Part shown: in pieces, positions 2,645 to 53,670 of the stretch | Numbering within the stretch: position 1 is the first letter of the stretch | Layout of the letters: each line of letters starts with the position of its first letter | IMG/VR virus record: IMGVR_UViG_3300048576_000547 | Span: 1 to 54,102 of that record | DNA length: 54,102 nucleotides | Source: a virus | Taxonomy: Duplodnaviria > Caudoviricetes | Strand: one strand, 5' to 3' | Made by a program: the position numbers and the translations under genes | Notes under the pieces: generated by a model | Seen by the model: the letters and a program-made list of their open reading frames with translations, nothing else | Told to the model about the DNA's origin: nothing | Database searches by the model: none

Positions 2645-2832
2645 TGCATGCTCTCTCTAGGCGTTTTCTTTTCGCCCACACACACGCTTCCTTCCGTAGA
2701 GAAGTCCAGTTCTTCAGCGCAGTATTTTCCATTTTCTCTCGCTATTTTGCGCAGAATAGCCACGGCTAACAAATCGGCGACAACGTAGAGAGGTTTCTTT
2801 TTCGATGAAGTATCCATGGGCGGACGCGACAC
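2641..2832 (-). CDS. Small hypothetical protein upstream of DUF2924
   Basis: 63-aa ORF whose stop overlaps the DUF2924 start. It contains the TGGA-N16-AGCG DNA motif, so it may be partly regulatory. Confidence 0.4.
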   Translation of the reverse strand: MSRPPMDTSSKKKPLYVVADLLAVAILRKIARENGKYCAEELDFSTEGSVCVGEKKTPRESMQ

Positions 2833-2921
2833 GCATCAAAGCCCAGTCCAGATTGTCTTCCACCAGCGCCATTGTTGGCGCAGGGTGCGGGAGATGCCAC
2901 GTTTGATGCGCTCGAACAGGT

Positions 2922-3152
2922 TCATGCCTGCCTCGCGACGCGTTCGGATGGATGCGGCGCGCGCATGGCCAACGCGATAAAGGCATCGAGGTGCGCGTCA
3001 TGGGCGCGCGCGATGGCTTTGTGGTAAGTGTCGACCGCCAGTTCGGCAACTTCAAGGGCTTCGTCTGTGCGGCCTTGGCGCACGAGGTTCAGAGTCTCGC
3101 GCACGCAGCGGTGCGCCATGTCCATGTAAAGCTGGGAAACGACGGGGATCAT
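2922..3152 (-). CDS. Hypothetical phage protein
   Basis: 76 aa; AAGGAG RBS upstream; first gene after the leftward promoter. Confidence 0.6.
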   Translation of the reverse strand: MIPVVSQLYMDMAHRCVRETLNLVRQGRTDEALEVAELAVDTYHKAIARAHDAHLDAFIALAMRAPHPSERVARQA

Positions 3153-3202
3153 AGCAATTCTCCTTGGGAAAAATGGGGCGGTATAGGCCGCCTAATCCCA
3201 AG

Positions 3203-3260
3203 AACCTATCCAAATAGGCATGGTCTGTCAATAAAAAGCGGAAACCAATCCTTTTTGGAT
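3203..3260 (-). promoter_or_regulatory. Leftward sigma70-type promoter overlapped by ATCC-N5-GG(A/C) operators
   Basis: Minus-strand TTGACA (3226-3231), 17 bp, TAGGTT (3203-3208); operators ATCCAAATAGGCA 3208-3220 and ATCCTTTTTGGAT 3248-3260. Confidence 0.6.
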
Positions 3261-3267
3261 AGGCTTA

Positions 3268-3924
3268 TTATGCCCTCAATGCCGGTTTTCTTACCTCTGG
3301 GCCGTCTTCCTCGTCATCGGCATCAATCGCAGGAAGAGCCGCCCAGAGCATTTCAAAGGTTTGTTTCAGACCTTTCGCCAGCATGGGGGAGCGTGCCAAC
3401 AGAAGGCGGTCAGGGCCGATCATCTGCGCGACCGTCGATCCATAAACGATCTGAAGTGGAAGCGGCGTGAAATTCGCAGGAGCGACGCGTACCGGCGATT
3501 CGGCATCCTGCTTGTGGCAGATGGCGCGATAGGCAAATCCGGCATCACGTAGCGCTGAGCAATAGCCGATGAGTTCGGGAGAAAACAGACATGGCGTGTT
3601 GCCGCACAAAAACAAGGCTTCTGCGCCTTCCTGCCCGCGCAAATGTGTGTGTATGTCCTCGAACATGTGGGCGATTGCGCTTTCACCATCCAAGATCAAA
3701 TGATCTTTTTCCCGCAACGCAACACCACGCCCACCGATGAATTCGACTTTTTCTCCGAGGTAGGACAGCAGAGCGGTTTCCGTCTTTTGTTGCAGCTTGT
3801 TTATGCCCCCCAGCTCAAACTGACGGATCGACGTGAGGGCAGCGCCGGATTCCTTCGCAAGATCGTCTTGCGAGATATTCAGGAGCGCACGAGCGGCGCG
3901 GAGTTGGTCAGGGGTGAGTGCCAT
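3268..3924 (-). CDS. XRE-family HTH regulator with C-terminal domain
   Basis: N-terminal TPDQLRAARALLNISQDDLAKESG...IRQFELG HTH. Confidence 0.85.
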   Translation of the reverse strand: MALTPDQLRAARALLNISQDDLAKESGAALTSIRQFELGGINKLQQKTETALLSYLGEKVEFIGGRGVALREKDHLILDGESAIAHMFEDIHTHLRGQEGAEALFLCGNTPCLFSPELIGYCSALRDAGFAYRAICHKQDAESPVRVAPANFTPLPLQIVYGSTVAQMIGPDRLLLARSPMLAKGLKQTFEMLWAALPAIDADDEEDGPEVRKPALRA

Positions 3925-4072
3925 GTTATGCTTTCCGTATCATTAATGCTCAATTTCCGCATTATTCATGCCGAAAGTCAAGATTTTTGTTGATTTTTTC
4001 GTTAATTTCTGGCATCTTTCAACCCATGCTTGCAACATTTTGGTAGAGATCATTCTTCGGCGGAAGATTTTT

Positions 4073-4369: not shown

Positions 4370-4372
4370 AGC

Positions 4373-4789
4373 CTAGTCGACAACGCAGGTGAGCATGTCG
4401 TCCACCTTTTCCTTGATTTCCGCATTCTTCTGTTTGTCGCTTGTTTTGCGGCATTTTTTGTAGGTTTTGCACACGACCTTGGCCAGAACCGCTGGATCGA
4501 CGTCATGCCCCGTGCAGCGCGCTTGGGCGTAGGTGAGGATTTCGCGCAAGAGCGCTTCGTCGACATCAGCATCCATCGCTTTTATGTCCTGCGCGTCGAT
4601 CTCATCGATCAAAGCGGACACGCGAACCTTATAAAATTTGGCCAGTTTTTCGAGCCAAGACAGGCTGATGTTGCGCGTTCCCTTCTCGAAACGCTGAATC
4701 GTCTGCGCCGTAACCTTGTGCGCCGCTGCGACTTCCTCTTGGGTAAAGCCCGCTTGTTCTCTTATGATTTTCAATCTGTTCATTCTCAT
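4373..4789 (-). CDS. CI-like repressor (XRE HTH, no S24 autocleavage domain)
   Basis: NRLKIIREQAGFTQEEVA...TIQRFEKGTRNISL HTH; divergent from the Cro-like gene. Confidence 0.85.
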   Translation of the reverse strand: MRMNRLKIIREQAGFTQEEVAAAHKVTAQTIQRFEKGTRNISLSWLEKLAKFYKVRVSALIDEIDAQDIKAMDADVDEALLREILTYAQARCTGHDVDPAVLAKVVCKTYKKCRKTSDKQKNAEIKEKVDDMLTCVVD

Positions 4790-4795
4790 CACCCC

Positions 4796-4905
4796 ATCCA
4801 ATTTGGATGCACCATCATATCCGAATTGGATGGTTAACGCAAATAGTTTCATAAAACCATCCTAATAGGCCTTTTTAATCTTGATTTAACCTATCCAAAT
4901 GGGAT
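4796..4905. promoter_or_regulatory. Immunity operator cluster, palindrome ATCC-N5-GGAT
   Basis: ATCCAATTTGGAT 4796-4808, ATCCGAATTGGAT 4819-4831, ATCCTAATAGGCC 4859-4871 (degenerate), ATCCAAATGGGAT 4893-4905. Confidence 0.8.
4875..4890 (+). promoter_or_regulatory. CtrA binding box in the cI/cro intergenic region
   Basis: TTAA-TCTTGAT-TTAAC is an exact TTAA-N7-TTAAC consensus and overlaps a TTGATT -35-like hexamer. Confidence 0.6.
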
Positions 4906-4919
4906 ATGTGATTATCATC

Positions 4920-5132
4920 ATGAAACTGGCCGATTACCTCATAGCGAAAAAACTCTCTTACGCGGCATTTGCGCGGATGCTTGGCATGGACAGCACAAGC
5001 GCCGCCCTGAATGTCGCTCGATACGCCAAAGGCGAGCGCCGCCCGCGCCCCGTCATCGCCGACAAAATCGTCGCCGTCACCAAAGGGCGCGTGAAGCACA
5101 AAGACCTCTACAGCATCGGAGCAGTCGAATGA
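4920..5132 (+). CDS. Cro-like HTH protein
   Basis: MKLADYL...SYAAFARMLG...VARYAKGERRP...IVAVTKGRVKHKDL; first gene of the rightward early operon. Confidence 0.85.
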   Translation: MKLADYLIAKKLSYAAFARMLGMDSTSAALNVARYAKGERRPRPVIADKIVAVTKGRVKHKDLYSIGAVE

Positions 5133-6087: not shown

Positions 6088-6088
6088 T

Positions 6089-6979: not shown

Positions 6980-6985
6980 AAACAC

Positions 6986-7615: not shown

Positions 7616-7651
7616 TCCTCGTTTCCATTTTTATTCGTTTGAGGGTGTCCG

Positions 7652-10368: not shown

Positions 10369-10378
10369 GGGAGGCTGC

Positions 10379-16926: not shown

Positions 16927-17271
16927 ATGACAACCTACACCATCTGGCAAGTCGCCGAGGCTGTTGGCGCGACGAAAATGCAAATCGAAAAATGGATATC
17001 GCGTGGGCTTTTTGAACCGTCACAAAGTGTCCCAGAAAAGCGGGCGCGAGAATATATCTTCGATGACGTCGTTCATCTTGCCGCGATAGTCTCTTTGCAA
17101 AAGTTCGGTGTGAGTGTGAAACGCGCCGCGTCTATTGCAGGGGCCGCGCTGAAATCCGCCGATCCGATGGCTCATGCCCTAAAAGGCATTACCGGCGTTT
17201 ATGTGAATATCGAAAACATCCGCAAAGACACAAGAGCATCCCTGAAAAGGGTCGTCGGACAAAATGCCTAA
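16927..17271 (+). CDS. MerR-like winged-HTH protein
   Basis: YTIWQVAEAVGAT...IEKWISRGLFEP...REYIFDDV...LQKFGVS. Confidence 0.7.
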   Translation: MTTYTIWQVAEAVGATKMQIEKWISRGLFEPSQSVPEKRAREYIFDDVVHLAAIVSLQKFGVSVKRAASIAGAALKSADPMAHALKGITGVYVNIENIRKDTRASLKRVVGQNA

Positions 17272-18673
17272 TGGCCGCCACCAAATGGCTAAAAGTATAG
17301 AGCTTTGGCCGATTGGCAAGCTCAAGCCCTATGCGAAAAACCCGCGCACGCACAATGCGGCGCAGGTCGCACAGCTGGCCGCGAGCATCGTCGAATACGG
17401 GTTTACCAATCCGCTTCTTGTGGTCAGCGACGGCACGATCATCGCTGGGCATGGGCGGTTGGAAGCGGCAAAACAGGTCGGGTTGAAGGAAGTTCCGGTC
17501 ATCCTGCTTGATCACCTGACGCCCGCGCAACGCCGCGCCTACGTCATCGCCGACAACCAACTAGCCCTGCAAGCGGGATGGGACGACGCTCTCTTAGCGG
17601 AGGAGATGCACGCGCTGAACGGACTTGGGTTCGATCTATCGCTCACAGGGTTCGACGAAAAAGAAATCGATCAAATCCTCGCCCCCTTGCAGGATGAGCA
17701 GGAGAAGCCGTCCGAGGCTGGCGGCAAGGAAGACGAAGCGCCTGCGCCGCCCAAGCATCCCGTCTCGCGCGAAGGCGACGTCTGGCTGCTTGGCAACCAT
17801 CGCTTGCTTTGCGGCGACAGCACGGATCCCGCCGCCATTGCGCGTTTGATGGGCGGGAAGCAAGCGCACTTGCTGTTCACGTCGCCGCCCTATGGCAACC
17901 AGCGCGATTACACGACCGGAGGCATCAGCGATTGGGACAAGCTGATGCAAGGCGTATTTTCCGTATTGCCGATGCGCGACGATGGTCAGGTCTTGGTCAA
18001 TCTCGGCCAGATCCACAAAGACGGCGAATGGCAGCCTTACTGGCAGGATTGGATCGCGTGGATGCGCGAGAAAAACTGGCGGCGCTTCGGCTGGTACGTT
18101 TGGGATCAGGGGCCGGGTCTTCCGGGTGATTGGAACGGACGCTTCGCCCCCAGCTTCGAGTTCGTCTTTCATTTCAACAAGACGCCGCGCAAACCCAACA
18201 AGATCGTGCCCTGCAAATGGGCGGGGCACGTCATGCACGAAGACGAAGGCGGCTTGCGCGAAAAAGATGGCACGGTTGGCAAATGGACGCACGCCGAACA
18301 GCCCGTTCAGGAAAACAAGATACCGGACAACGTGATCCGCATTACGCGCCACAAAGCGCGCGGCGTCGAAACCGAACACCCCGCCGTGTTTCCCGTGCGT
18401 TTGCCCGCGTTCATCATGCAGGCCTACAGCGCCGAGGGCGAGATTGTTTATGAACCCTTCTGCGGATCGGGAACCACCATCATCGCGGGCGAACAAACAG
18501 GCCGCGCCGTTCGGGCGATGGAGCTTGCGCCCGCTTATGTCGACGTGGCCGTGCGCCGATGGCGCGAGATATTCCCGAACGCGCCCCTTGCGCTTGAAGG
18601 CGAAGGAACAAGTTTTGAAGAAACCGCCGCCGCGCGCGGCATCGATTTGACCCAAGAAAGCGAAGCCTCATGA
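17264..18673 (+). CDS. ParB-N domain fused to N4/N6 DNA methyltransferase (SPPY)
   Basis: PYAKNPRTH, IIAGHGRL, ADNQL; TSPPY, HPAVFP, EPFCGSGTT; start may be ATG 17285. Confidence 0.92.
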   Translation: MPNGRHQMAKSIELWPIGKLKPYAKNPRTHNAAQVAQLAASIVEYGFTNPLLVVSDGTIIAGHGRLEAAKQVGLKEVPVILLDHLTPAQRRAYVIADNQLALQAGWDDALLAEEMHALNGLGFDLSLTGFDEKEIDQILAPLQDEQEKPSEAGGKEDEAPAPPKHPVSREGDVWLLGNHRLLCGDSTDPAAIARLMGGKQAHLLFTSPPYGNQRDYTTGGISDWDKLMQGVFSVLPMRDDGQVLVNLGQIHKDGEWQPYWQDWIAWMREKNWRRFGWYVWDQGPGLPGDWNGRFAPSFEFVFHFNKTPRKPNKIVPCKWAGHVMHEDEGGLREKDGTVGKWTHAEQPVQENKIPDNVIRITRHKARGVETEHPAVFPVRLPAFIMQAYSAEGEIVYEPFCGSGTTIIAGEQTGRAVRAMELAPAYVDVAVRRWREIFPNAPLALEGEGTSFEETAAARGIDLTQESEAS

Positions 18674-19875
18674 CCTTGACCGTTGAGCTTTGGTCGCTCG
18701 ACCGCTTGCTGCCCTATGCCGCAAACGCTCGGACGCATGATGACGCGCAGATTGCGCAAATCGCGGCCAGCATTGCGGAGTTTGGGTTCAATGCGCCTTG
18801 CCTTGTCGATGATCGTGGCGTTTTGATCGCGGGGCATGGCCGCCTTTTAGGCGCGCGGAAACTTGGCTTAACTGAAGTTCCCGTCATTTGCCTCGGCCAT
18901 CTATCAGAAGCGCAGGCGCGCGCTTATCGCATTGCCGACAACCGCATCGCTGAAAATAGCAAATGGGATGAAGCGATGCTTGCGGCAGAGGTGGCGCGGC
19001 TGCAAGAGGAGAACGTCGATCTTTCTCTCCTTGGGTTTGGAGAGGACGAGATCGACGATCTGCTGAATCTTGAAGACGGAAACGAAGGGAACACGGACGA
19101 CGATGCCGTGCCGGAAGTGCCCATCGATCCCGTGACAAAGACCGGCGATGTCTATGTTCTTGGCAATCATCGTTTGCTCTGCGGCGACAGTACCGTTCTC
19201 GAAAACGTCGAAAAGGTTCTCGATGGTGCGCTGGCCGACATGGTATTCACGGATCCGCCTTACAACGTGGATTACGGTAACACGGCCAAGGACAAGATGC
19301 GCGGCAACGACCGCAAGATCATGAACGATAATCTTGGCAAAGGCTTCGAGGCCTTCCTTTATGACGCTTGCGTCAATATGGTGACTGTCTGTAAGGGCGC
19401 GATTTACATCTGCATGTCATCCAGCGAACTGCACACGTTGCAAAAAGCCTTCGTTGCGGCGGGCGGAAAATGGTCGACTTTTGTCATCTGGGCCAAAAAC
19501 ACTTTCACGCTTGGGCGCTCGGACTATCAGCGCCAGTACGAGCCGATCCTCTATGGCTGGAAACAAGGTACCGATCATTTCTGGTGCGGCGCGCGCGATC
19601 AGGGTGACGTGTGGTTTGTGAACAAGCCGACGAAGAACGATCTGCATCCGACCATGAAGCCCGTTGAGCTTGTTGAACGCGCCGTCCGCAACAGCAGCAA
19701 AAGCCGCGACATTGTTCTGGACTGCTTCGGCGGCTCTGGCAGCACGCTCATCGCTTGCGAGAAAGCCGGGCGTCAGGCGCGGCTGATCGAATTGGATCCC
19801 AAATACTGCGACGTGATTGTCAAGCGGTGGGAAGAGTTTACGGGAAAGAAAGCTGAACTGGCTTCGGCATCTTAA
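18670..19875 (+). CDS. ParB-N domain fused to N6-adenine DNA methyltransferase (DPPY)
   Basis: PYAANARTH, IAGHGRL, ADNRI; TDPPYN, HPTMKP, DCFGGSGST. Confidence 0.93.
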   Translation: MTLTVELWSLDRLLPYAANARTHDDAQIAQIAASIAEFGFNAPCLVDDRGVLIAGHGRLLGARKLGLTEVPVICLGHLSEAQARAYRIADNRIAENSKWDEAMLAAEVARLQEENVDLSLLGFGEDEIDDLLNLEDGNEGNTDDDAVPEVPIDPVTKTGDVYVLGNHRLLCGDSTVLENVEKVLDGALADMVFTDPPYNVDYGNTAKDKMRGNDRKIMNDNLGKGFEAFLYDACVNMVTVCKGAIYICMSSSELHTLQKAFVAAGGKWSTFVIWAKNTFTLGRSDYQRQYEPILYGWKQGTDHFWCGARDQGDVWFVNKPTKNDLHPTMKPVELVERAVRNSSKSRDIVLDCFGGSGSTLIACEKAGRQARLIELDPKYCDVIVKRWEEFTGKKAELASAS

Positions 19876-20375
19876 GCACAATCGAACCAGCGCATGCATG
19901 TGGCAAGCAGGTGATCGTAATCGCCGCTTGACGCCTCAGTCATGAATTCTTTGATCTGATCGCCCGGCACGCCTTCCTTGCGTGCGGCGCGCTGGCATTG
20001 CCCAAGCACGGCGAAGGCATTGCCATCGCGGCCGGAAAGCTGGACGCGCACGTCGGGAAAGCGCAAGGCGTTGTCGGGGGCTTTAAAACCGACATAGCGC
20101 GCGTAACCGTATCCTTCGGGATTGATGTAAAGCTGGCGCCTATCGGAAGCCGTGACTTCGATCACACTCACGCGACCGTTAAAGTAGCCGCCTTTGCCGA
20201 GACACCAAGTGCGGTCTGTAAGAAAGGATTGGACAAGGGCATCGTATTCCTCGGCGGTCAAGGCAGTGGTTTCGCTGACCGTGACGACTTCCGCCCTTAG
20301 GCTGTCGTCTCGATAAGCGGCCTCGACATCGGTAATGTCGCGCGGCTTGCTGGCAAAACGCACAAGGATGGTCAT
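19872..20375 (-). CDS. Hypothetical phage protein, apparently two domains
   Basis: N part ends YINPEGYGYARYVG; C part VQLSGRDGNAFAVLG...SGDYDHLL; AAGGA RBS. Confidence 0.8.
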   Translation of the reverse strand: MTILVRFASKPRDITDVEAAYRDDSLRAEVVTVSETTALTAEEYDALVQSFLTDRTWCLGKGGYFNGRVSVIEVTASDRRQLYINPEGYGYARYVGFKAPDNALRFPDVRVQLSGRDGNAFAVLGQCQRAARKEGVPGDQIKEFMTEASSGDYDHLLATCMRWFDCA

Positions 20376-20388
20376 TGGTCGGATCCTT

Positions 20389-20874
20389 TCATTTAACGCG
20401 GTCGATAAGGGTTGCTTTCGCGCCGAGCTTATTTATGAGCGCGTCAAGTGCGCTGCCTCTGTGACCGCCGATATGCCATTCGCTGATCGCTTCGATCAGA
20501 GGAAAGTCCGGCGAGTAGCTGCGACTGTTCTTGTAATTGTAAATCGTGGCGACCTCTTTGCGCGGAAGCATAACAAGCCAATGCGCTTCGGTTTTAAAGC
20601 CGTCGCCTTCCGATGGCTTGCCGAAGATTTCGACAAGGCCTGCATAGGACGCTTTAATGCTTCCGATGTAACAAGTGCCGTCGGCAGGATGCTTTATGAC
20701 TTGGCGCGCCTGCTTGCGCTGACGAAGGCCCGCATCGTAAGCGGCTTCGAGCGCGGCCTTGATGCCCCAAACGCTGCAGTCGTGGAAATCGAGTTCGTCG
20801 CTGTTGCGCGTTTGCAGCGTGCCAATATGAAGATGGTCTGATGCGATTTGTGAAAAAATCTCGTTTCTGGTCAT
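20389..20874 (-). CDS. DUF6900-like protein with C-terminal extension
   Basis: TLQTRNSDELDFHDCSVWGIKAALEAAYDAG; GAGG RBS before ATG 20874. Confidence 0.8.
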   Translation of the reverse strand: MTRNEIFSQIASDHLHIGTLQTRNSDELDFHDCSVWGIKAALEAAYDAGLRQRKQARQVIKHPADGTCYIGSIKASYAGLVEIFGKPSEGDGFKTEAHWLVMLPRKEVATIYNYKNSRSYSPDFPLIEAISEWHIGGHRGSALDALINKLGAKATLIDRVK

Positions 20875-20881
20875 CGCCGCC

Positions 20882-21211
20882 TCACGCTGCTTTGGTTTCG
20901 TGGATCGCTTTTCTGAAATAGCTCTTCCAACCCCTGTCCTGCAGGATGTTGTCGATGTGCTCGGCAATCGCTTCGGGGCTTGTGGGGCCGCCTTTGATGA
21001 AGCTTAACTCGTCGGCGAGATGGCGACCGAAGCGCGCGTCAAGAAGATCGCGCGTATGTTCAGGCGTAAGATCAAAGCGCTCTGCAAGCAGTTTGCTCAT
21101 CGCGTCCCAAACCATCGGCGCATCGTAGTCGCTGCGGACGCTTGTGCCCCAAAATCCCCATTCGGGGTTGGCGGTGGGAAGCGGGTTGTTGTTTTGCATA
21201 ATGGCCTCCAA
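20882..21211 (-). CDS. Hypothetical phage protein
   Basis: PTANPEWGFWGT...RDLLDARFGRHLAD conserved-looking motif; GGAGG precedes the internal ATG at 21199. Confidence 0.75.
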   Translation of the reverse strand: MEAIMQNNNPLPTANPEWGFWGTSVRSDYDAPMVWDAMSKLLAERFDLTPEHTRDLLDARFGRHLADELSFIKGGPTSPEAIAEHIDNILQDRGWKSYFRKAIHETKAA

Positions 21212-21297
21212 TAAATGCGTTTCTCATTACATGGTGATGATCGCTCTTCGTCGCAAGATTATCCACTCAATTAGGGATCATATGATTGCGAAGATAA

Positions 21298-21330
21298 GCG
21301 CCGGTTGATTGTTAGATAATCAACCGGCGC
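21298..21330. terminator. Hairpin downstream of the DUF3489 gene
   Basis: 13-bp perfect inverted repeat GCGCCGGTTGATT-N7-AATCAACCGGCGC. Confidence 0.55.
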
Positions 21331-21342
21331 GCACGGATTGCT

Positions 21343-21729
21343 TCATTGCTTGGGGGGTGCGATTTTATAAACGCGTTTGCCGTCTTTCGGCTTTTCGGAA
21401 ACGATTTGGTAACCACGTTTCTTGCCGAGCGCGTGAGAAATCGCCGAACGCACCGTGTGTTTTTGCCAGCCCGTCGCCTCGACAATCTGGTCGATGGTCG
21501 CGCCTTCGGGGCGGCTTAACAGTTCGATAACCTTCGTGAGTTTCGTATCCCGCGCAGGTGCGTCATTTGTCGGCTTCATGGCCGCGACGGCGGCAAGACC
21601 CGCCTGCATAGGCTCGGAGAGTTTGCTTTCATCGAGGGGTTTGCCGTTGCCTTGGGCCTTGGTTTTGATCGCGGCCTTGACGATAGTTTTCGGCTTGGAT
21701 TTGCCTGTTTTGCTTGGTTTTTTGGACAT
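21343..21729 (-). CDS. DUF3489 family protein
   Basis: TKLTKVIELLSRPEGATIDQIVEATGWQKHTVRSAIS...LGKKRG...RVYKI; AAGGAGG RBS. Confidence 0.9.
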   Translation of the reverse strand: MSKKPSKTGKSKPKTIVKAAIKTKAQGNGKPLDESKLSEPMQAGLAAVAAMKPTNDAPARDTKLTKVIELLSRPEGATIDQIVEATGWQKHTVRSAISHALGKKRGYQIVSEKPKDGKRVYKIAPPKQ

Positions 21730-21873
21730 GTTTGTGTCCTCCTTTCGCCATCATGAACGCTTCATTCGCGGCACTTATCCAGTCAATTATGAGCAATCAG
21801 ATGGCTTTCTTCGGCTTATCCCGATCATTAGGTGATCGTGCAAAAGCGACGCTGGGGCGCAGGAAAATGACAT

Positions 21874-22431
21874 ATGGGAGTCAGTCAACGACAGTTCGCC
21901 GATCTGTGGGGCAAAAGTCGCGGCGCGGTGCAGAAAGCCATCGCATCGGGCCGCATCCGGCTTGAAAGCGATGGGACAATCGACGCGGATAAGGCCATCG
22001 CGGCATTGGCGACGAATACGGATCCCGCGCAAGTGCGAGGCAAAGAAAAGCCGAAAGGCAAAGCGGTGCCAGAAGCGGCCATCCGCGCCGTCGGCGATAC
22101 GCTACGAGAGTCCGGCCACGCGCCCATAACAGGCGGCGGCACGACCTTCGTCCAAGCCCGCACGGCAAATGAAGTTTTGAAGGCGCAAGAGCGCCGCGTC
22201 AAACTGCAGAAGCTTAAAGGTGAGCTTGTCGACCGCGCGCAAGCTGTCGCGTTGATCTATCGGATTGCACGGCAGGAGCGCGATGCATGGCAGATGTGGC
22301 CAACGCGCGTCGCCTCCGCGCTGGCCTCTGACCTCGGCGCGGACACGCATCAGGTTCAGGTCGCGCTTGAAAAGCTGGTGCGCGAGCATCTGGCTCAGCT
22401 TGCCGACATCAAGATCGAAATCCGCTCATGA
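21874..22431 (+). CDS. Terminase small subunit (Nu1-like)
   Basis: N-terminal HTH (SQRQFA...AVQKAIASGRI), ARTANE..KA...LKGELVDR; directly upstream of the large subunit. Confidence 0.85.
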   Translation: MGVSQRQFADLWGKSRGAVQKAIASGRIRLESDGTIDADKAIAALATNTDPAQVRGKEKPKGKAVPEAAIRAVGDTLRESGHAPITGGGTTFVQARTANEVLKAQERRVKLQKLKGELVDRAQAVALIYRIARQERDAWQMWPTRVASALASDLGADTHQVQVALEKLVREHLAQLADIKIEIRS

Positions 22432-37072: not shown

Positions 37073-37129
37073 ATCTCTTTGTCCGCATCGCTGATCAACA
37101 GCAATTCCTTTTGATGCAAGGCAATTGAA

Positions 37130-37546
37130 GTGAAGCCAATTTTGTTCCCAAAGGGCAATCGTGATCCCATTGATATTTACGTGGGGAAACGGTTGAGACT
37201 ACGTCGCAGCCTTATCGGAGTAAGCCAGGCGCAACTTGGTAAAGCGGTCGGGATTTCGTTCCAGCAAATCCAAAAGTACGAGCGCGGCATCAATCGCATG
37301 GGCGCAAGTCGCCTTTATCAATTTGCAGGGCTGCTTCGCGTTTCCGTGTCTTACTTTTTTGATGACATTGAGACAGAACAAAAGACAGAGGAAGCACTGC
37401 AGAATAAGGTCGTTCCCCTGAAGGCAGCCCCAAAACAGATGCACAACAAAGAAACGTTGCAACTTGTTCGCGCCTTTCACGCCATCTCTGACAAAAAGCA
37501 GCGCAATAAAGTGATGTCTCTTATCAAAACGATGGCTATTGAATAG
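37130..37546 (+). CDS. Alphaproteobacterial XRE regulator (PraR/PhrR/StaR-like)
   Basis: DPIDIYVGKRLRLRR...SQAQLG.AVGISFQQIQKYERGINRMGASRL...ETLQLVRAF..I. Confidence 0.88.
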   Translation: MKPILFPKGNRDPIDIYVGKRLRLRRSLIGVSQAQLGKAVGISFQQIQKYERGINRMGASRLYQFAGLLRVSVSYFFDDIETEQKTEEALQNKVVPLKAAPKQMHNKETLQLVRAFHAISDKKQRNKVMSLIKTMAIE

Positions 37547-45915: not shown

Positions 45916-46084
45916 CCCCGCTTGCGTCTGCCCACCGATTAAAGAATACAGTCGGGAGTTTCAGGAAAAGCTTGCAAAAGAGATTGATGTAGCACCGGAA
46001 AACGGAGCATATCCGCAGGCGATCTTAGACTACGCTTTACTCAGAGAACAGTTAGCTTCCTGTCTGAAGAAGGACAATTTTTGA
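45836..46084 (+). CDS. Putative o-spanin lipoprotein (Rz1-like)
   Basis: Overlaps the i-spanin in another frame; lipobox LNA-C; CPPIKEYSREFQ...DYALLREQL..C. Confidence 0.75.
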   Translation: MPNFAPRWTLLALALISLNACGTANYNPACVCPPIKEYSREFQEKLAKEIDVAPENGAYPQAILDYALLREQLASCLKKDNF

Positions 46085-48316
46085 ATCAACCGCACCTGTT
46101 CCCATCATGATATGGTAATGTTTTATATAGCCGCATTCACTAAAAATCTTCTCGAACAACTCAAAAAATTTGTTTTCATCAATCTCGACTTCATCGACAT
46201 AACTTGCAGCATCGGAATGAGATTCTCTATCCATATAACGTCCAAATGCTGTATATGAAATATCCCCCTGATTAGCCTTGACTAGGTGATTTAAAGCGGA
46301 CGCCAGTTTATCTTCACCATCAATAAACGAGAAGAATTGCTCAAGAATATTCCTCATTGTGTTTGCAAGGAGGATCTTCGAGGCAGCACCATCTTTTATG
46401 TCTCTCAGCAATTGCCAGTAGGTTTCGTAATTATTTTTAATTTCTTTTTTTGACATGGGCTGAATATAGGTCGTCTTTTCCCTTTTTGTAATTCTAAACA
46501 AGCGATATTGTTTAGAAAGATCTTCGCCTTTGAAGTAGCCTAACAGCTCATGCAAAAAATAAAGATGGTGCGTAAGAACAAATATCTGGCGGTAAGAACC
46601 ATCTTTAAAAAACTTTTCTTTAATCAGCATCCCCACATCGAACACGAGATTAAATGATAAACTCGAAATCGGATCGTCAATAACTATTATTCGATTTGAC
46701 GTGCCTCCATTGCTCTCAATATCGGACACTCCGACACAAGCCTCCAGATAATACAGGAAGGAAATGAGCGTCTTTTCTCCCTCGCTAAGTGTCTTAAATG
46801 CATAGTCTTCGGGTGGACGATCATCACGAACAACCCTGTAAACAAATCTATTATCATCCTCTAAATTAACGCGTTGAATACTGAACCCATCCAGCCCAAA
46901 AGATCTCAAGCGGCTGTTGATGCGCCTAACGGACTCTTCAACATTTTTTGTCTTTTTTTGGTTCTCAATAACAATCTTTTCCAAAGAGCGTTCTTTTTCC
47001 ATGATGGAAGCCAGTTCCTTGGAAGCTTCTTCGTTCTTTTTGTTCAGCGCTGCTGATTGCAGTACATATGAGCTAATGTCAGCCTCATATTTTAGATGGA
47101 TAAGACCCCAGAAAGCGCGTTTTATCTGCTCTTTTGCAGTCGTCAAATTCTTCAATTTTTCATTAAAGGCGTTAAGCTCTTTGTTGTGATCAGATATTAT
47201 CTCGTTTATGCGCTCAACGAATGGCATTGTTGGAGCAAGAAGAACTTCCTCACCTAACGTTGCCAATTTCTTTTCGACAGCCTTCAGGTTCTTGTTTAAA
47301 CTATTTTGAAGATCAGTTGCGCAATCTAAAAATCCGCTGCGACTACTAATCTCAGCATCATCCCTATATTTTTGAAGAAGGGCCACAGTGCTTTCGTATT
47401 CCGCCCTATATGTTTCGTTGTGTTTTTGTATTTCGATTTTTTTGTTTTGATATGTAGCATCAACATGCGCCTTGATCTTAGTTCTAAGATCAGCGTCTAT
47501 CTTCTGTTTGCAGAATGGACATACGTCAGTTTTATCCAAATAGGATTCGATTCCTTTATTAAGCCACGTCTCATGGTTCAGCTTGGCAATCAGGTCACTT
47601 AAGTAGCTGTCTTGCGATCCAACAATTTTATCCTGAAAGATTAAATTGTTTTCTATGTCAGACACGAAAGGCTCAACCATTTGGAGCAGTGGCTTTTCTG
47701 CGGTGTCGCCAGCCGTCAGCTGCTCGTATTCGGTCTTTAATCGTTCAAGTTCGGCAGGTACATTTTCTGCTTGTTTCTCAGGAGAAGATGACAATAACAC
47801 CTGCTTCAGAAATGCGTCCTTGCTTCCCATGTATCCCATAAGACAGGGTCGCAACGATGTGTTTTCATACGCCTGTTTCTCACCCCAAACTTTCTCAGAA
47901 AGAGCATTCCTGTTTTGCATCCCGTCCGATTGGCAATCTGCAATAATTTTAGCCTGAGCCTCTCGAAGTGGAGATTGTTTTAGCAATTCAGAGCGAGCAT
48001 TTTTGATATTTGTCTCAGCTTCAGTATTGGCCTTGTCTAGCGTAAAGATACCCTTCTGGCAGTCCGTCAAAAGAAAATTATCTTCGACATATTTTTCATT
48101 ATAGACAAGAAATTCCGGCTTAATCAGGTTTGGCTTAAATTTTATATCGCAAAAGGTATAATCGCCAATCTTCTCTCCTTGAAAATACAGGAACTGCGCC
48201 AGAGTAGATTTGCCTGTTCCGTTGAGTCCGTAAAAGATGTTAACGCGCTTAAGTTCATCAAGAGTAACAGGAGATGAATAGCTGGCCACAGAATGAAGTT
48301 TTATCTCTTGAACCAT
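46052..48316 (-). CDS. rloC: RloC-like anticodon nuclease (Rad50/SMC-type ABC ATPase, zinc hook, HEPN)
   Basis: GLNGTGKST, CPFC hook within coiled coil, LSEGEK, IVIDDPISSL, LTHH, NTMRNILE and RYMDRESH; AT-rich; downstream of res. Confidence 0.8.
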   Translation of the reverse strand: MVQEIKLHSVASYSSPVTLDELKRVNIFYGLNGTGKSTLAQFLYFQGEKIGDYTFCDIKFKPNLIKPEFLVYNEKYVEDNFLLTDCQKGIFTLDKANTEAETNIKNARSELLKQSPLREAQAKIIADCQSDGMQNRNALSEKVWGEKQAYENTSLRPCLMGYMGSKDAFLKQVLLSSSPEKQAENVPAELERLKTEYEQLTAGDTAEKPLLQMVEPFVSDIENNLIFQDKIVGSQDSYLSDLIAKLNHETWLNKGIESYLDKTDVCPFCKQKIDADLRTKIKAHVDATYQNKKIEIQKHNETYRAEYESTVALLQKYRDDAEISSRSGFLDCATDLQNSLNKNLKAVEKKLATLGEEVLLAPTMPFVERINEIISDHNKELNAFNEKLKNLTTAKEQIKRAFWGLIHLKYEADISSYVLQSAALNKKNEEASKELASIMEKERSLEKIVIENQKKTKNVEESVRRINSRLRSFGLDGFSIQRVNLEDDNRFVYRVVRDDRPPEDYAFKTLSEGEKTLISFLYYLEACVGVSDIESNGGTSNRIIVIDDPISSLSFNLVFDVGMLIKEKFFKDGSYRQIFVLTHHLYFLHELLGYFKGEDLSKQYRLFRITKREKTTYIQPMSKKEIKNNYETYWQLLRDIKDGAASKILLANTMRNILEQFFSFIDGEDKLASALNHLVKANQGDISYTAFGRYMDRESHSDAASYVDEVEIDENKFFELFEKIFSECGYIKHYHIMMGTGAVDSKIVLLQTGS

Positions 48317-48336
48317 CTCCTTCCTCCATGACTTTC

Positions 48337-51270
48337 TTAAAAAGAAAATGTGGATTGTATCCGTTCATCAACAGGCCTTAGTTTCGCATATTCCAGCATG
48401 TCCTTAATGGATGCGCCTTTGTCGCGCCATTCGTAGAAAACGCCTTCACCAAGCAACACATAGTGCCACTCTGCATTCCCGCGTTGTTCGGGCGCAAGGC
48501 TGTTCAAACGGTCACACCATGAAACGGCAGCGCGTTTTTTCCGTTTAACATTCGGTGTGTTGACTTGTCCTTGTGCTTTCGTCTCGACGAGATAGATTTT
48601 ATCCTCACAACGGACAAGAAAATCGGGGTAGTAGAATGCCGGAAGTCCATCTTCTTTGACATAACGCAACCTTGTGAAGATGTGCTTCTGTTCATTGAGC
48701 TTGCAGAAAGCATCGACGGAACCATCTCGATCAACCGTCTCGATGAAGGCCCGTTCAAGACCGCCGCTACGAGAGGGATATGGCAAGCGCAAATAAATGC
48801 TCTTGCTGACAGCCAAAGACGAACTCTCTCTCATTGTCAGTTTTGGGACTTCTGATAACAGACGATGGGTCACTTCTGCATCTGCGGTAATTGCCGTTTC
48901 CTCAGCCGCCAAAAGCTGTCGCGCCCAAACCTTCATGACGTGTTCTGTTACTGGATCGACAAGCAGGATGCGCCAGTTTTCATCTGTAAACGGATCAAAA
49001 GCCCTCTCAAAAAGGCGTGTTCGGATATACTCGTCTATTCCGTTCGCTAGATATGCCCGATTAATTTGGATATGCGGAAATTCGGTATTCTTCTTGAATT
49101 TTGTAGAGCTGTCCGTAAGCGGCTGGCTTAAAGCCTCCGTAATTCGACGAACAACACGCCCGAGGTAGTCGTTGTATCCCGTGGCCGTCATCACGCCACC
49201 GTTGACGCGATAGTCACCAAAACGGGTCTTGTCCTGAACGTCCTCGGAATGGAACTTTTCTCCGATCCCAATCATTGCCTTGAGTTTATCAACCGAAAAG
49301 GTCGTAAAGGATTCAAGAGAAGAAACAGCAATTTCTCGCGTTTGCACTTCTTCTTCTCTCTCGCGGAGAATGAAGGGAATGGCAAAATCATAGTCCTGAT
49401 AATTGGGGCGCATCCCTATAGCCACAAGGTCGCCATTAGCGGAACCACCAGTGTCATCGTCATCTTCGATCTCACCAACGAGACCCTCTTTAATCAATTC
49501 TTCGTAAAACTCGATGAAAGCTGGATGTTCGACAATCGATAGAATGTCGATCATGCTTCCCGGCGTTTTACCTTCTCGAATGAGCTTGCGATTATCTCGC
49601 TTGATGTCGTCAAAGTCTGTGCCACGCCACATAAGGCGAAGACCGCGTCCAATCGTTTGTTCCAGCAAAATCCCAGCAGCAGAAGCGCGAAGCGGGACAA
49701 TGACGCAGATGTTGTTAACGTCAAACCCTTCGCGAAGCATTAACACGCTAATAACGACGCGTGGGTGGGCGTGGCGATCAACATCGAAAAGACGCTCACG
49801 AAGAACCTTCCACTCGTCCATCTTAAGTTCGCCTTTGCGGTTGGAATCAACACGCAAAATCTCTTCTTGTCCTAAACCCTCTAGTTTCAGAAAGTCTTCG
49901 ATCAAGGGCGTTACGGAGGTATCTTCGCAGACCACGAGCATCTTCGGGTGACGGTCGGGATCAAGCTTGGCAAAATCTTCTTCAAGCTTCCGAAGCTTTG
50001 TTAGCCCTGCGCGAAGCATGATGCGTTGGCCCTCGGCAAGCTGCGGATTTCCGTTTTCATCACGATATGCCTTGAACTCCAATTGTTCGTCGGACAGCGC
50101 ACCAATTTCGCTACGCTTGTCAAGAACAAGGGACTTAACCAGCCCAAGTTTCATCGCCGTTTTGAGATCGAAGTCCACCACAATATGGGGGAAGAAAGAC
50201 TTTTTAGCATTTTTGCCAGTTCCGACTTCATTGTAAGGCGTTGCCGAGAAGTCAACTTGGACAAAACGGTCTGCCTTTGGCTCAGAAATCAGTGAAAGGC
50301 TTTTCTGCCATTCAACTTCAGAAACTTCTCCTTCACGTTTGAACTCGTGAATATGGTGGGCCTCGTCATTAAAGACCATTAGGCTCGGAAGCTCACATAG
50401 ATAATTCAAAATGCCGCCGCGCTCAAACCGCCTATTCAGCACATTAAGATCGTTGCCCTGTGAGGTTCCGGGCGTCAATGGGAGAAGATCGCTGACAACG
50501 TCTTTTGCATCAGGGCGCGTGCCGGGAGCAAAGACCATTTCTTGCTGCCCATCATCTTCGCCTTCTTCGCTCAAAACATGCCAGTTAGCGATGGCTATAA
50601 CGCCCCCAGAAGTGACTTTTCTCCCAATCTCTTCCTTGGGGCACACAGCCCCCTGAACAAAGCGAAATACTTCGTCGCGGTGTGCGGCTGGGATGAAAAG
50701 CTCTTGAAACGTCGAAAGATCGGACGTGACGAAATTGCGCTTTCCATCACGCTCCTTGCCCTCAAAAGCATCGCGCAAGCGGTCATAAACAATCAGCCCC
50801 GGCGCAACTATCAAGAAATTCTTGGTGTATCGCGGATTGCTGGGGTCACGGTTGGCGTTGAGGACTTGCCAAACCATAAACGCCTGCAAAACCCACGTTT
50901 TGCCTGTACCTGTTGCCATCTTGAGGCAGTATTTGGGACAATTGTTTTTTGGCGCGCTAATAATGTCTGCTGCTTGCGCGCTTGTCATCAAGACCTCAGG
51001 AGCCACGTTCTCATAAAGCCCCTTAAGTGTCGTCATACCAAGAACTTCGTGGGCGTAAATGACATTTAGGATTGCGGTTTTTTGCCCCTCATGAAAATTG
51101 TAAGGGCGCGTGTCTAGAAAATCTTGCTGAAACCACCATTTCAAAAGCTCGGCGGTTGTATCGCTCACTTGTGACAGTATAGGGGCGTCTCCATTCTCAA
51201 GGCCAACGCAAGCCTCAGCAACACGAGCAGAAAGAAGGCGAGCGAGGGTAAGGTCATTTATGCTTGCCAT
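48337..51270 (-). CDS. res: Type III restriction endonuclease subunit
   Basis: MATGTGKT, NDEAHH, FSATP, LREGFDV, EQTIGRGLR; C-terminal PDF...VETK nuclease. Confidence 0.92.
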   Translation of the reverse strand: MASINDLTLARLLSARVAEACVGLENGDAPILSQVSDTTAELLKWWFQQDFLDTRPYNFHEGQKTAILNVIYAHEVLGMTTLKGLYENVAPEVLMTSAQAADIISAPKNNCPKYCLKMATGTGKTWVLQAFMVWQVLNANRDPSNPRYTKNFLIVAPGLIVYDRLRDAFEGKERDGKRNFVTSDLSTFQELFIPAAHRDEVFRFVQGAVCPKEEIGRKVTSGGVIAIANWHVLSEEGEDDGQQEMVFAPGTRPDAKDVVSDLLPLTPGTSQGNDLNVLNRRFERGGILNYLCELPSLMVFNDEAHHIHEFKREGEVSEVEWQKSLSLISEPKADRFVQVDFSATPYNEVGTGKNAKKSFFPHIVVDFDLKTAMKLGLVKSLVLDKRSEIGALSDEQLEFKAYRDENGNPQLAEGQRIMLRAGLTKLRKLEEDFAKLDPDRHPKMLVVCEDTSVTPLIEDFLKLEGLGQEEILRVDSNRKGELKMDEWKVLRERLFDVDRHAHPRVVISVLMLREGFDVNNICVIVPLRASAAGILLEQTIGRGLRLMWRGTDFDDIKRDNRKLIREGKTPGSMIDILSIVEHPAFIEFYEELIKEGLVGEIEDDDDTGGSANGDLVAIGMRPNYQDYDFAIPFILREREEEVQTREIAVSSLESFTTFSVDKLKAMIGIGEKFHSEDVQDKTRFGDYRVNGGVMTATGYNDYLGRVVRRITEALSQPLTDSSTKFKKNTEFPHIQINRAYLANGIDEYIRTRLFERAFDPFTDENWRILLVDPVTEHVMKVWARQLLAAEETAITADAEVTHRLLSEVPKLTMRESSSLAVSKSIYLRLPYPSRSGGLERAFIETVDRDGSVDAFCKLNEQKHIFTRLRYVKEDGLPAFYYPDFLVRCEDKIYLVETKAQGQVNTPNVKRKKRAAVSWCDRLNSLAPEQRGNAEWHYVLLGEGVFYEWRDKGASIKDMLEYAKLRPVDERIQSTFSF

Positions 51271-51272
51271 GA

Positions 51273-53321
51273 TCAGACCTCTACAATTGCTTCGGCTTCA
51301 AAGCCAAAAACGTCCACTACGCGCACACAAACACGGCGACTGCCTTCTTTTGCAGGCAAATCTGACAGGCGGGCCGTTGTAACAACGCGGAATGGATCAT
51401 CATCGTTCTCCGTATTTCCGCGATAATCTTGCCAAACGGAACGGAACACATGGCCATCATAATCGGGGTCAACACTCCAATACTCAATCAATGCCATCGG
51501 GTCTTTGTTGACAATTCCTTGAAGCTTCTTCCTGTTGGCCTCGTCAAGGTTGAGCGCATCGGGAGATAAAAGAACATAATTGTCGATCTCAACCGTTAAG
51601 CTTTCTTTATCTGCATGCTTCGTCCGTTCAACGGGCTTGATCTTCACATACTGAAGTGAGGAGAAACGAACTTCTTCGGCCTTCAGTTTGTTGCCTTTCT
51701 TCTTCAATCGGTCGAGCAAGTCTGGCGGGATAACAAGCACCTCAAGTTTATCGCCTTGATTAAGCGCCTCAATGTCGTGCCCTATGTTTGAATCAAAGTT
51801 CCAGCCTAAAATAATGACCTTATCCCAGCCCCCCATCAAATTGTCACGGATTTCAATGGCTCTTTTGAGTGTAGCAAGGCCTGTGAGCTTGTTTGGGCTG
51901 TCAGCGAGAACAAGCGTTTTGGTGTGTGAAAGCCGCCCCATATTGCGGTTTGGATTTTCTTCGACAGGAAGAGGTAATGCGCCAAAAAGGCCGAGCACAA
52001 TTTCAGAGAGATCGCCAACACGAAACTTGCGCCCCATCGTGCTGCGCGCCATTTCCACTTGGTAATCACCTACGTGTTGATAAAGAAAAGGTAGGGCATC
52101 TTTATCGATAAGCCTTTGACGTGTGATCATGCATGCGGGCTTTCCTATGTCTGCAACAATCCACCGGCGTCCCAACCGTTCCGCCACAGATGCTGTTGTT
52201 CCAGATCCTGAGAAAAAATCAGCTACTAAATCATTGGGGTTGGAAGATGCTTCTATTATTCTCTGTAATAATTTTTCTGGCTTTTGTGTAGGATATCCAA
52301 CAAGTTCCTGCCCTGTTTTGGACGGAAGGATGTCCGTCCAAATAGATTGAACTCTTCGCCCTTGTTCCGCATTTTCATCCATGTACTGCTTAAGGTAGGG
52401 AGTCCCCGTAGAGCTATAATAAATTCTGTTTTCAGCAGATAATTTATCAATTCCTTCTTGAGAATAACTCCAGTGTCTTCCTGAAGGGGGAGCAATTTCT
52501 TTCTCTTGGAATACACGAGATGGCCCAGATCCCGGAGCCGTTATAGGGCCGGCAAAGAAACGACGGCCAGTTTCTGGCTCAACCAAGTTAAATCTAGTGG
52601 CCAAATGTTCGTCTGTTAACGGAACAAAAATAGGATTAAATGTATGATCACCGGATTTTCCATACGAGTAAAGAACGTCATGTACTACACCAAATTTCCC
52701 TGCATCGTTATGCGCACCGGTTCTTTGCCAAATGATCTCATTTAGAAAGTTTTCTTTCCCAAAAACTTCGTCAGCAATTATCTTTATGTAATGCCCAACA
52801 TGGTAATCCAAGTGAACGTATATTGTTGCTTTATCAGAAAGCAGCTCTCTTACTAGACAAAGCCTTGGAACAAGCATTTGAATATATGATGCGGTTCCAT
52901 CTTGCCACGTGTCTGAATAGGCAAACTGCTCAATCGCAGTTGGCTTTTGCTCAATGTCACCTCCCGGAAGTGTGATCTTTGTTCTATAGTCCGCCTTACT
53001 GTCGAAAGGGGGGTCAATGTAAATCAAATCCACTTTCCCTCGCATAGAAGGCATTTCATCACTGCCTGCAAGGAGTGCTGCAATCGCCAGCAAGTTGTCG
53101 CCATAAATAAGGCGGTTCATATTAGCTGGATCAAGATCATGCGAAGCCTTCTCAGCCCTAGCGAACATATTTTCCCAATTCGTGTCGCGCGAGGGTATAA
53201 CGAGCTCGCGGGTCTGAAGGCCAATACGATGGGCGCTTTCCAATCGCTCCATAATGCGTTCGGCCTCGCGCTTTCCTTCTGTGACGATGGTTGGCAGTTG
53301 TTCCAATAAACTCTTGGTCAT
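51273..53321 (-). CDS. mod: Type III modification methyltransferase subunit
   Basis: GDNL, YIDPPF, YPTQKPE, DFFSGSGTT; start at ATG 53321 (MTKSLLEQLP). Confidence 0.93.
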   Translation of the reverse strand: MTKSLLEQLPTIVTEGKREAERIMERLESAHRIGLQTRELVIPSRDTNWENMFARAEKASHDLDPANMNRLIYGDNLLAIAALLAGSDEMPSMRGKVDLIYIDPPFDSKADYRTKITLPGGDIEQKPTAIEQFAYSDTWQDGTASYIQMLVPRLCLVRELLSDKATIYVHLDYHVGHYIKIIADEVFGKENFLNEIIWQRTGAHNDAGKFGVVHDVLYSYGKSGDHTFNPIFVPLTDEHLATRFNLVEPETGRRFFAGPITAPGSGPSRVFQEKEIAPPSGRHWSYSQEGIDKLSAENRIYYSSTGTPYLKQYMDENAEQGRRVQSIWTDILPSKTGQELVGYPTQKPEKLLQRIIEASSNPNDLVADFFSGSGTTASVAERLGRRWIVADIGKPACMITRQRLIDKDALPFLYQHVGDYQVEMARSTMGRKFRVGDLSEIVLGLFGALPLPVEENPNRNMGRLSHTKTLVLADSPNKLTGLATLKRAIEIRDNLMGGWDKVIILGWNFDSNIGHDIEALNQGDKLEVLVIPPDLLDRLKKKGNKLKAEEVRFSSLQYVKIKPVERTKHADKESLTVEIDNYVLLSPDALNLDEANRKKLQGIVNKDPMALIEYWSVDPDYDGHVFRSVWQDYRGNTENDDDPFRVVTTARLSDLPAKEGSRRVCVRVVDVFGFEAEAIVEV

Positions 53322-53325
53322 TAGA

Positions 53326-53556
53326 TTACTCTTTCCGCGCTTTTGTTTTCTGATGCCGTGCGCGAGTCCATTCGTCGATTTCGTCGCCCCGAAAGCGCCA
53401 AGAACCCCCAACCTTAAAGGCTGGGATTTCTTGCCGCGACAAGAGGCTGTAGATCGAACGCTCCGTGACCTTGAGGTATTTGGCAACTTCCTCAACGGTC
53501 AGGATTTCCGGCTTGGATGATTCGGCACGCTGTTTCATACAGCGTAAAGTATTCAT
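53326..53556 (-). CDS. Excisionase-family (HTH_17) DNA-binding protein leading the R-M operon
   Basis: ILTVEEVAKYLKV...IY.L....IPAFKVGGSWRF; start may be ATG 53538. Confidence 0.88.
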   Translation of the reverse strand: MNTLRCMKQRAESSKPEILTVEEVAKYLKVTERSIYSLLSRQEIPAFKVGGSWRFRGDEIDEWTRARHQKTKARKE

Positions 53557-53670
53557 AAATTTTCATTCTTGCAATCCTCCATTAGCCCCAAACAGGCAGT
53601 CAGGGCATTTGTCAGAGGAATTGCTTCAAATGTGTCGGAAGTCCAGTTCTACAGTCCTTTTCTTGATTGG

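Follow-up and report, generated by a model that had tools for sequence, protein, structure and literature searches.

The two-box element and the genes behind it

The window analysed here, the entire virus record IMGVR_UViG_3300048576_000547 (54,102 bases, ending at gene boundaries), carries a short two-box DNA element ahead of three leftward gene units: an operon of DUF2924 and a serine integrase, a cassette that includes a DUF6900 protein, and a DUF3489 gene. A first-pass annotation had pointed to four minus-strand sequences of the form TGGA-N16-AGC(G/A), and a motif scan confirmed all four in position, strand and identical spacing. We refer to them as sites 1 to 4.

Site 3 (21753..21781, minus strand) consists of box 1 TGGATA (21781-21776), a spacer ending in AGC and box 2 GTTCAT (21758-21753). 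It lies 24 nucleotides (nt) ahead of the start codon of the DUF3489 gene (21343..21729, minus; PF11994), whose C-terminal domain is a predicted winged helix-turn-helix. Site 2 (21237..21265, minus), with box 1 TGGATA (21265-21260), a spacer likewise ending in AGC and box 2 GATCAT (21242-21237), stands between the DUF3489 terminator and the first gene of a three-gene cassette (19872..21199, minus) that encodes a PTANPEWGFWGT-type protein, a DUF6900 protein and a 167-amino-acid protein matching phrog_1933. The whole forms a leftward block of four small genes (19872-21729, minus). Between DUF3489 and site 2 there is a terminator-like hairpin with a 13-bp stem (21298..21330, minus), and the cassette is therefore a separate unit. 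In two other loci (L312 and L313) the PTANPEWGFWGT-type and DUF6900 proteins are fused into one protein.

Site 1 (2680..2708, minus) has box 1 TGGACT (2708-2703), a spacer ending in AGC and box 2 GTGTGT (2685-2680), and precedes the DUF2924 gene (2183..2644, minus; PF11149, E 7.8e-48) and the large serine recombinase, the integrase, with its Resolvase, Recombinase and Zn_ribbon_recom domains (801..2186, minus). Rather than occupying an intergenic gap, as had been thought, site 1 is embedded in the 3' part of a small conserved open reading frame (ORF; 2641..2817, minus; 58 amino acids from ATG 2817) whose TGA stop overlaps the DUF2924 start codon (ATGA). Pfam and PHROG searches with this ORF gave no match. 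Site 4 (53617..53645, minus) has box 1 TGGACT and AGC, followed by the hexamer AATTCC. From the end of the TGGA-N16-AGC(G/A) motif to the next start codon the distance is 40 nt at site 1 (DUF2924 ATG 2644), 42 nt at site 2 (ATG 21199), 28 nt at site 3 (ATG 21729), and 65 or 83 nt at site 4 (ATG 53556 or ATG 53538).

On its own, the bare TGGA-N16-AGC(G/A) pattern is weak evidence. It occurs seven times in the window (six on the minus strand) against 3.6 ± 1.9 in shuffled sequence, with at least seven matches in 4 of 100 shuffles, and when 18 spacings were scanned on two strands, spacing 16 on the minus strand (six matches) was merely the top of 36 cells. Three of the seven matches (5988, 20906 and 32700) fall within coding sequence and score poorly with the family matrices described below. 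Sites 1, 2 and 3 were rescued by independent sequences, and site 4 was not.

Read across related loci, the element takes the form of box 1, T(T/G/C)GA(C/T)(A/T), a 17-nt spacer ending in (A/T)GC, and a second hexamer, box 2. Variants of box 1 in the family are TTGATA, TTGACT, TTGGCT, TTGCTA and TGGATA, and also TGGACT and TCGACT. The commonest form of box 2 is G(T/G/A)TCAT; CCTTAT or CATCAT occurs at times, and upstream of DUF2924 in this phage lineage the hexamer is NTGTGT. The AGC, treated as a box of its own in the first-pass annotation, forms the spacer's final bases (-15 to -13).

A matrix built from 33 instances outside the window ranked site 3 first, site 2 second, site 1 third and site 4 47th among the 108,132 window positions, and a cruder matrix from 12 DUF2924-upstream instances placed sites 2, 3 and 1 at ranks 18, 30 and 39 and site 4 at rank 3857; these ranks are partly circular, the sites having been picked beforehand by TGGA...AGC. 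By matrix rank and by their relatives, sites 1, 2 and 3 belong to the single class that had been proposed for all four, and site 4 falls outside it. The position ranked fourth by matrix, 3981 (minus), was rejected as a member: only its TTGACT is kept in one relative (L122), which leaves it an ordinary promoter candidate. A fifth TGGA-N16-AGCG match (20906-20929, minus; matrix rank 1816) lies inside the end of the first cassette gene, is followed by GATCCA, and is 30-55 nt upstream of the probable start of the DUF6900 gene (~20874).

Conservation of the element

When the window is aligned with four relatives (DUF2924 identity 72-84%), no invariant runs in the 340 columns are longer than ACTGGACTTC, AAGGAAGC and TGTGTG, and the three together make up site 1. 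Site 1 shows no codon wobble in these five sequences, whereas the adjacent DUF2924 coding sequence wobbles at each third base. The NTGTGT variant of the second hexamer is itself conserved in the window's lineage. The frame of the small ORF is open and overlaps DUF2924 in L121, L122, L123, L125, L126 and L051 and in many metagenome loci.

More distant DUF2924 genes were collected by an alignment scan of metagenome contigs, which gave 80 loci at 44-58% identity, 75 of them usable. A matrix made from DUF3489-type sites only reached at least 5 bits in 33 of the 75 upstream regions, 22 of which scored 10 bits or more. At the 5-bit threshold each of three controls, namely the opposite strand and a pair of windows within the gene, gave 0 of 75. 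Among the 33 positive loci, 30 have box 1 at 55-61 nt ahead of the DUF2924 start codon. Examples are TTGAGG-N17-GTTCAT (L257), TACACT-N17-GTTCAT (L233), TGGACT-N17-GGTCAT (L195) and TGGACT-N17-GTGTGT (L186), the last of these like the window. Together, the wobble-free invariant runs and the 75 metagenome loci identify site 1 as a DNA element kept constant inside coding sequence, and they rule out that it is coding sequence only.

Among a further 30 DUF2924 loci, drawn from 401 genomes of the phylum, most have CTGGATAA, which is also box 1 of window sites 2 and 3, then the 17-nt spacing and CCTTAT, CCTCAT or GTTCAT. TGGATA-N17-CATCAT, in which CATCAT is a fair ordinary -10, is found at DUF2924 loci in metagenome-assembled genomes (MAGs) labelled Kiritimatiellia and Ruminococcus; this spread across phyla rests on three MAG titles, whose labels call for caution. 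Two of these loci (L128 and L129), one under each label, have nearly identical sequences upstream of DUF2924, reflecting either a very recent transfer or one mis-binned contig. A blastn search of the GenBank phage collection with the DUF2924 region gave no match. In 74 of the 401 sampled genomes DUF2924 is found together with serine recombinases, often in several copies, and its number reaches seven per genome in some Pseudomonadota (G016, G072, G088, G100 and G192), which suggests many serine-recombinase elements per genome.

For DUF3489, the upstream DNA of 50 viral contig loci encoding the protein was read. Close relatives keep the site 3 sequence nearly unchanged. In distant ones (~55% identical, in the C-terminal domain only) the flanks cannot be aligned, and CTTGGCTT, a purine-rich stretch and AGCGTTCAT are still present, with exactly 17 nt from a TTGACA-like hexamer to GTTCAT. 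Across such flanks TGGATA, TTGATA, TTGGCT, TTGACT or TTGCTA is paired with AGC-GTTCAT at 17 nt. Searching the viral collection with the two-box pattern returned 62 stretches, of which about half are chance-like coding matches and ~25 are family members, the latter upstream of at least three different genes. A search with only the box-2 half (GCGAATGAAGCGTTCAT) yielded 29 stretches, including new sites with TTGATA or TTGATC at the right distance. A set of 69 de-duplicated representatives reads T(T/G)G(A/G/C)(T/C)N, 17 nt, then G(T/A/G)TCAT after AGC, with a Shine-Dalgarno sequence and ATG usually 15-45 nt further on; the search pattern fixed the letters of box 2 in this set, so its invariance there is no evidence.

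Five Rhodospirillaceae-type MAGs with relatives of this prophage contain 12 matches to the strict pattern against 0 for the reversed control. The matches stand in pairs 0.5-1 kb apart in prophage regions, as in the window, and the prophages of G002, G003 and G004 have near-identical copies of site 2 paired with site-3-type sites at that distance. A putative small protein encoded opposite the element, starting at the ATGAAC... that box 2 gives in reverse complement, was considered and dropped: its frame runs for only 10 codons in L083 and L084 and for 23 at site 2, and so is not conserved. Upstream of an MNSTIKVG gene in L084 and L104, a perfect inverted repeat with 9-bp arms, GATTATCCA-N9-TGGATAATC, has box 1 as its right arm. 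Both arms are similar to the usual DnaA box; at window sites 2 and 3 the left arm survives only in imperfect form.

In the 401 alphaproteobacterial genomes the strict pattern occurs 41 times, in 27 genomes, against three times for the reversed pattern, and 29 distinct occurrences were examined for the gene downstream. Eight precede DUF2924 (five confirmed by Pfam, and three unscanned that are N-terminally near-identical to one of these), two DUF3489, three proteins of the PTANxxWGFWGT or DUF6900 kind, the family of the window's cassette, and four small unknown genes with a Shine-Dalgarno sequence. Host core genes in proper promoter context were absent from the 29. The first-pass annotation had proposed a shared, element-associated class of promoter or operator joining the integration module with accessory genes, and it was right in this: the same two-box element stands ahead of three gene families in many unrelated contexts. 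The class exists, under nucleotide-level constraint, at a fixed distance from the start codon and restricted to these mobile-element genes; its spacing is fixed as well, at 17 nt, although many of the instances were collected with a pattern of that one spacing.

Promoter function and competing explanations

Sites 3, 2 and 1 are probably one conserved cis-regulatory element in three copies, with a promoter as its most likely function. A promoter is favoured because box 1 is TTGACA-like, a G stands two bases before box 2, much as in an extended -10, and the start codon follows at a short, constant distance; copies are also placed behind a terminator or at the head of a unit. RNA polymerase of the sigma-70 family would start at the element, using box 1 as the -35 and box 2 as a weak -10. 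Three leftward transcripts would result, with DUF3489, the DUF6900-type cassette, and DUF2924 plus the serine integrase each read from a copy of its own. Through the copy inside the end of the small gene, the integrase operon could be transcribed independently of the small protein.

The sigma-70 consensus is TTGACA-N17-TATAAT, with TGn in extended -10 promoters. The verdict of the first-pass annotation, that the motif does not match sigma-70, needs to be divided. It does not hold for the -35, where TGGATA and TGGACT match TTGACA at four of six positions, or for the spacing, which is 17 nt at all window sites and so within the 16-18 nt of sigma-70 promoters; it does hold for the -10 at sites 3 and 1. 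Box 2 falls short of a -10 hexamer in general, GATCAT of site 2 coming nearest with four of six matches to TATAAT, including A at position 2 and T at position 6. The element is thus like sigma-70 promoters in its two hexamers 17 nt apart, its TTGACA-like box 1, its near-invariant G two bases ahead of box 2, and its location 20-60 nt ahead of a Shine-Dalgarno sequence and start codon, and unlike them in that box 2 usually lacks A at -11 and that (A/T)GC and a purine-rich GAA-GAA stretch are conserved. PMC8407463 describes alphaproteobacterial promoters as often lacking T at -7; the element keeps T at -7.

Several observations weigh against a simple promoter. GTTCAT is without the A at -11 and GTGTGT is a worse -10 still; a consensus sigma-70 scan of 19800-22000 found 0 promoters; and 12 of the 29 strict occurrences are without promoter-like context. 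The family members are often related by descent, so that the counts given above are not all independent events. Conservation is also tighter than an ordinary promoter requires, which points to an extra factor.

Parts of the region occur in six metatranscriptome runs, four of which were compared as short, low-depth assembled contigs; these contigs are scattered over the whole phage, may include DNA and cannot show transcript ends. One low-depth contig from an RNA library (run X17, eight mismatches) spans 21522-21770 and reaches ~24 nt past the start predicted from GTTCAT, fitting a start just after GATAAG in box 1 better and so counting, weakly, against box 1 as the -35 and box 2 as the -10. 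Another, from run X15, ends at 21299, at the foot of the terminator stem, a weak indication.

As the first-pass annotation had said, sigma-54 (GG-N10-GC) does not match: at the window sites the GG of box 1 is not followed by a GC 10 nt on. Nor does the alphaproteobacterial LexA box, a direct repeat GTTC-N7-GTTC: site 3 has a single GTTC, and sites 1, 2 and 4 have none. The EcfG general stress promoter is GGAAC-N16-17-CGTT; a CGTT does occur at the right distance in GCGTTCAT, but box 1 lacks AAC, and many members have CGGT or CCTT instead. The reverse complement of box 1 matches the DnaA box TTATCCACA at eight of nine positions at site 2 and seven of nine at site 3, and members with TGGACT, TCGACT or TTGGCT at box 1 do not match it. 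Rfam 15 gave 0 matches at the gathering score over the entire window. An RNA hairpin or palindrome centred on AGCG was discarded, as it is found in some copies and absent from most.

Two known arrangements offer partial parallels. The lambda promoter pI lies within xis, and pRE, pI and paQ are leftward promoters activated by CII. The element shares with them an integrase promoter inside the coding sequence of the upstream gene and one promoter type for several leftward units; it differs in lacking TTGC-N6-TTGC repeats and in that the window integrase is a serine recombinase with DUF2924. By this analogy we infer that site 1 may parallel pI in xis. Morons are transcription units of temperate phages in which a gene comes with a promoter and a terminator of its own. 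In like manner, a separate copy of the element stands ahead of the DUF3489 unit and of the cassette, a hairpin terminator belongs to DUF3489, and both units are oriented against the flow of the late operon. Unlike morons, both share the specialised promoter type of the integrase operon, across many phages.

The element may instead be mainly an operator, bound at both boxes or around box 2 by a protein that the mobile element encodes (DUF3489, DUF2924 or the product of the small ORF) and that would control all three units, with an overlapping promoter. This idea, which is the regulon of the first-pass annotation and is compatible with the promoter interpretation, is a tentative one. AGCG(T/G)TCAT hardly varies, a degree of conservation well beyond what a sigma-70 promoter calls for, and the strict pattern stands in proper context only ahead of mobile-element genes. 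DUF3489 is encoded in five of five viral contigs found by the DNA pattern alone, against 0 of 14 control genomes, and its structure model has a predicted winged helix resembling ArsR and MarR according to Foldseek matches; a sequence search of the PDB with DUF3489 found nothing. The TGGATA-N17-CATCAT of the Kiritimatiellia- and Ruminococcus-binned loci would be explained by a factor that travels with the element. On the other side, DUF3489 is present in only two of five genomes with the motif ahead of DUF2924 and in three of five with the motif ahead of other genes, DUF2924 is present in three of five of the latter, and one genome has neither, the genomes being possibly incomplete. The inverted repeats of some copies (ATGAA-GCG-TTCAT and GACC-AGAGC-GGTC) are not kept across the family, and co-occurrence in related phages may reflect kinship only.

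A bolder version, which we consider unlikely, is a dedicated class of mobile-element promoters that would need an element-carried specificity factor, with DUF2924, the winged-helix DUF3489 and the product of the small ORF as candidates. A structure model of DUF2924 (predicted local distance difference test, pLDDT, 80; predicted template modelling score, pTM, 0.40) had no PDB match with E below 0.5. If such a factor exists, the sites would make up a lysogeny regulon comparable to that of lambda CII and its promoters pI, pRE and paQ. A single switch would then turn on small accessory genes along with the serine integrase operon, the latter from within the gene upstream of it, and conservation of this regulon would reach from alphaproteobacterial prophages as far as elements of other phyla.

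A host heat-shock sigma factor of the RpoH type could also read the element, so that the integrase operon and accessory genes would respond to host stress; we regard this as improbable. Box 1 with its left flank (C-N-C-T-T/G-G-A) resembles CTTGAA, and a passage of PMC4843759, citing Barnett 2012, gives the S. meliloti RpoH1 consensus as CTTGAA-N15-16-CCTATAT. The heptamers CGTTCAT and CCCTTAT match CCTATAT at four to five of seven positions, and the T at -12 is one that R. sphaeroides RpoHI still tolerates, according to PMC3441632. Set beside RpoH promoters as excerpted from PMC4843759, the element has a CTTGA-like -35, preceded by a C at a distance of three bases, and a heptamer that is rich in C and ends in AT; it is unlike them in a spacer one base longer and a T for a conserved A, at the fourth heptamer position. 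The groES promoters of four related host MAGs differ from it too, reading CTTGAA-N16-CCTA(N)(N)T, close to the RpoH consensus in the same excerpts, against the N17 of the element. The -35 part does fit. Neither a heat-shock gene nor any other host core gene was found in promoter context among the strict matches examined in the 401 genomes, and the motif also occurs in MAGs of other phyla.

Slightly less probable again is that box 1 is itself the -10, as GATAAT or GATAAG within TGGATAA, and box 2 a conserved element at the 5' end of the transcript. GATAAT matches TATAAT at five of six positions, and the end of the X17 contig at 21770 lies ~4-7 nt downstream of GATAAG; that contig is a single low-depth record with eight mismatches. 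Many members have TGGACT, TCGACT or TTGGCT at box 1, none of them -10-like, there is no conserved -35 at 16-18 nt upstream of box 1, and a transcript element would sit uneasily with the inconsistent hairpin and the lack of an Rfam match. That the four-site motif is a chance pattern picked post hoc, as the near-background counts, the one high cell among 36 spacings and the failure of site 4 in every comparative test might suggest, is hardly credible, the independent comparisons excluding chance for sites 1, 2 and 3.

As a promoter-like signature, the element would help to annotate the transcription units of alphaproteobacterial prophages, namely the integrase operon, DUF3489 and DUF6900-type genes, and it offers a handle for finding the factor that controls integration in a large group of serine-integrase phages. 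It is also a clear case of regulatory DNA frozen within protein-coding sequence. Full-text searches for the motif strings returned, among the matches listed, unrelated titles and no relevant paper, and those for regulation of DUF2924 surfaced nothing, DUF2924 and DUF3489 being rarely mentioned; within the searched literature, the element, probably a phage promoter class, is undescribed.

Site 4 and the wider prophage

Site 4 is most likely a chance partial match, to judge from the sequences compared, and a function for it is doubtful. It shares box 1 and AGC with site 1, and box 2 is absent. G002 keeps the order of tail genes, defence genes, HTH_17 gene and lipoprotein gene, with a much shorter intergenic region (~30 nt) that is free of the motif; G001 has a different sequence at this position; and the motif is upstream in 0 of 16 distant HTH_17 loci. 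The first-pass annotation had extended the regulon to defence genes through site 4, a link that these results do not support. The exact string common to sites 1 and 4, AGAACTGGACTTC-N11-GAAGC, has five matches in viral contigs, all in unrelated-looking coding sequence, and the 13-nt identity between the two sites carries no weight. We also rejected site 4 as an attachment site at the end of the prophage: the break in homology past the lipoprotein-like gene is mere divergence, and G002 and G001 preserve the order of lipoprotein gene, HTH_17 gene and a different restriction-modification set.

The genes around site 4 are leftward and encode an RloC-like ATPase, type III res and mod proteins and an HTH_17 protein (46052-53556), followed by the lipoprotein-like gene (53671-54102). 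This defence block (46052-54102) lies between the phage tail and lysis genes and the lipoprotein-like gene. Two loci, L179 (G002:C30:88000-106000) and L180 (G001:C32), have the same flanks, including the HTH_17 gene, with restriction-modification genes that are diverged or different. The block looks like a variable defence slot, which may or may not belong to the prophage.

The window as a whole is a temperate tailed-phage prophage and not a conjugative element. Its gene content, from the integration module through the late operon, leads to this conclusion and corrects the earlier description of it as an integrative and conjugative element. The leftward integration module begins at the left end with a recombinase-associated gene (452-838, minus), which converges with an ORF at 1-462 (plus) in an 11-nt overlap. 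Homology to the related prophages L121, L123, L125 and L126 ends here, at ~465-477, which is likely the left attachment junction of the serine integrase. Helix-turn-helix regulators are encoded at 3268-3924, 4373-4852 and 4899-5132. A rightward replication block extends up to 19875, where its last genes are two ParB-methyltransferase genes, an adjacent pair of N6_N4 DNA methyltransferase genes (17264-19875) with a ParB N-terminal domain in the first. The rightward late operon (plus strand) runs from the small terminase subunit at 21874 to the endolysin at 45676. Within its row of tail genes, at 35378-37546, lie a gene for a methyl-accepting chemotaxis protein (HAMP and MCPsignal domains) and an HTH_3 gene, an unusual cargo for a phage.

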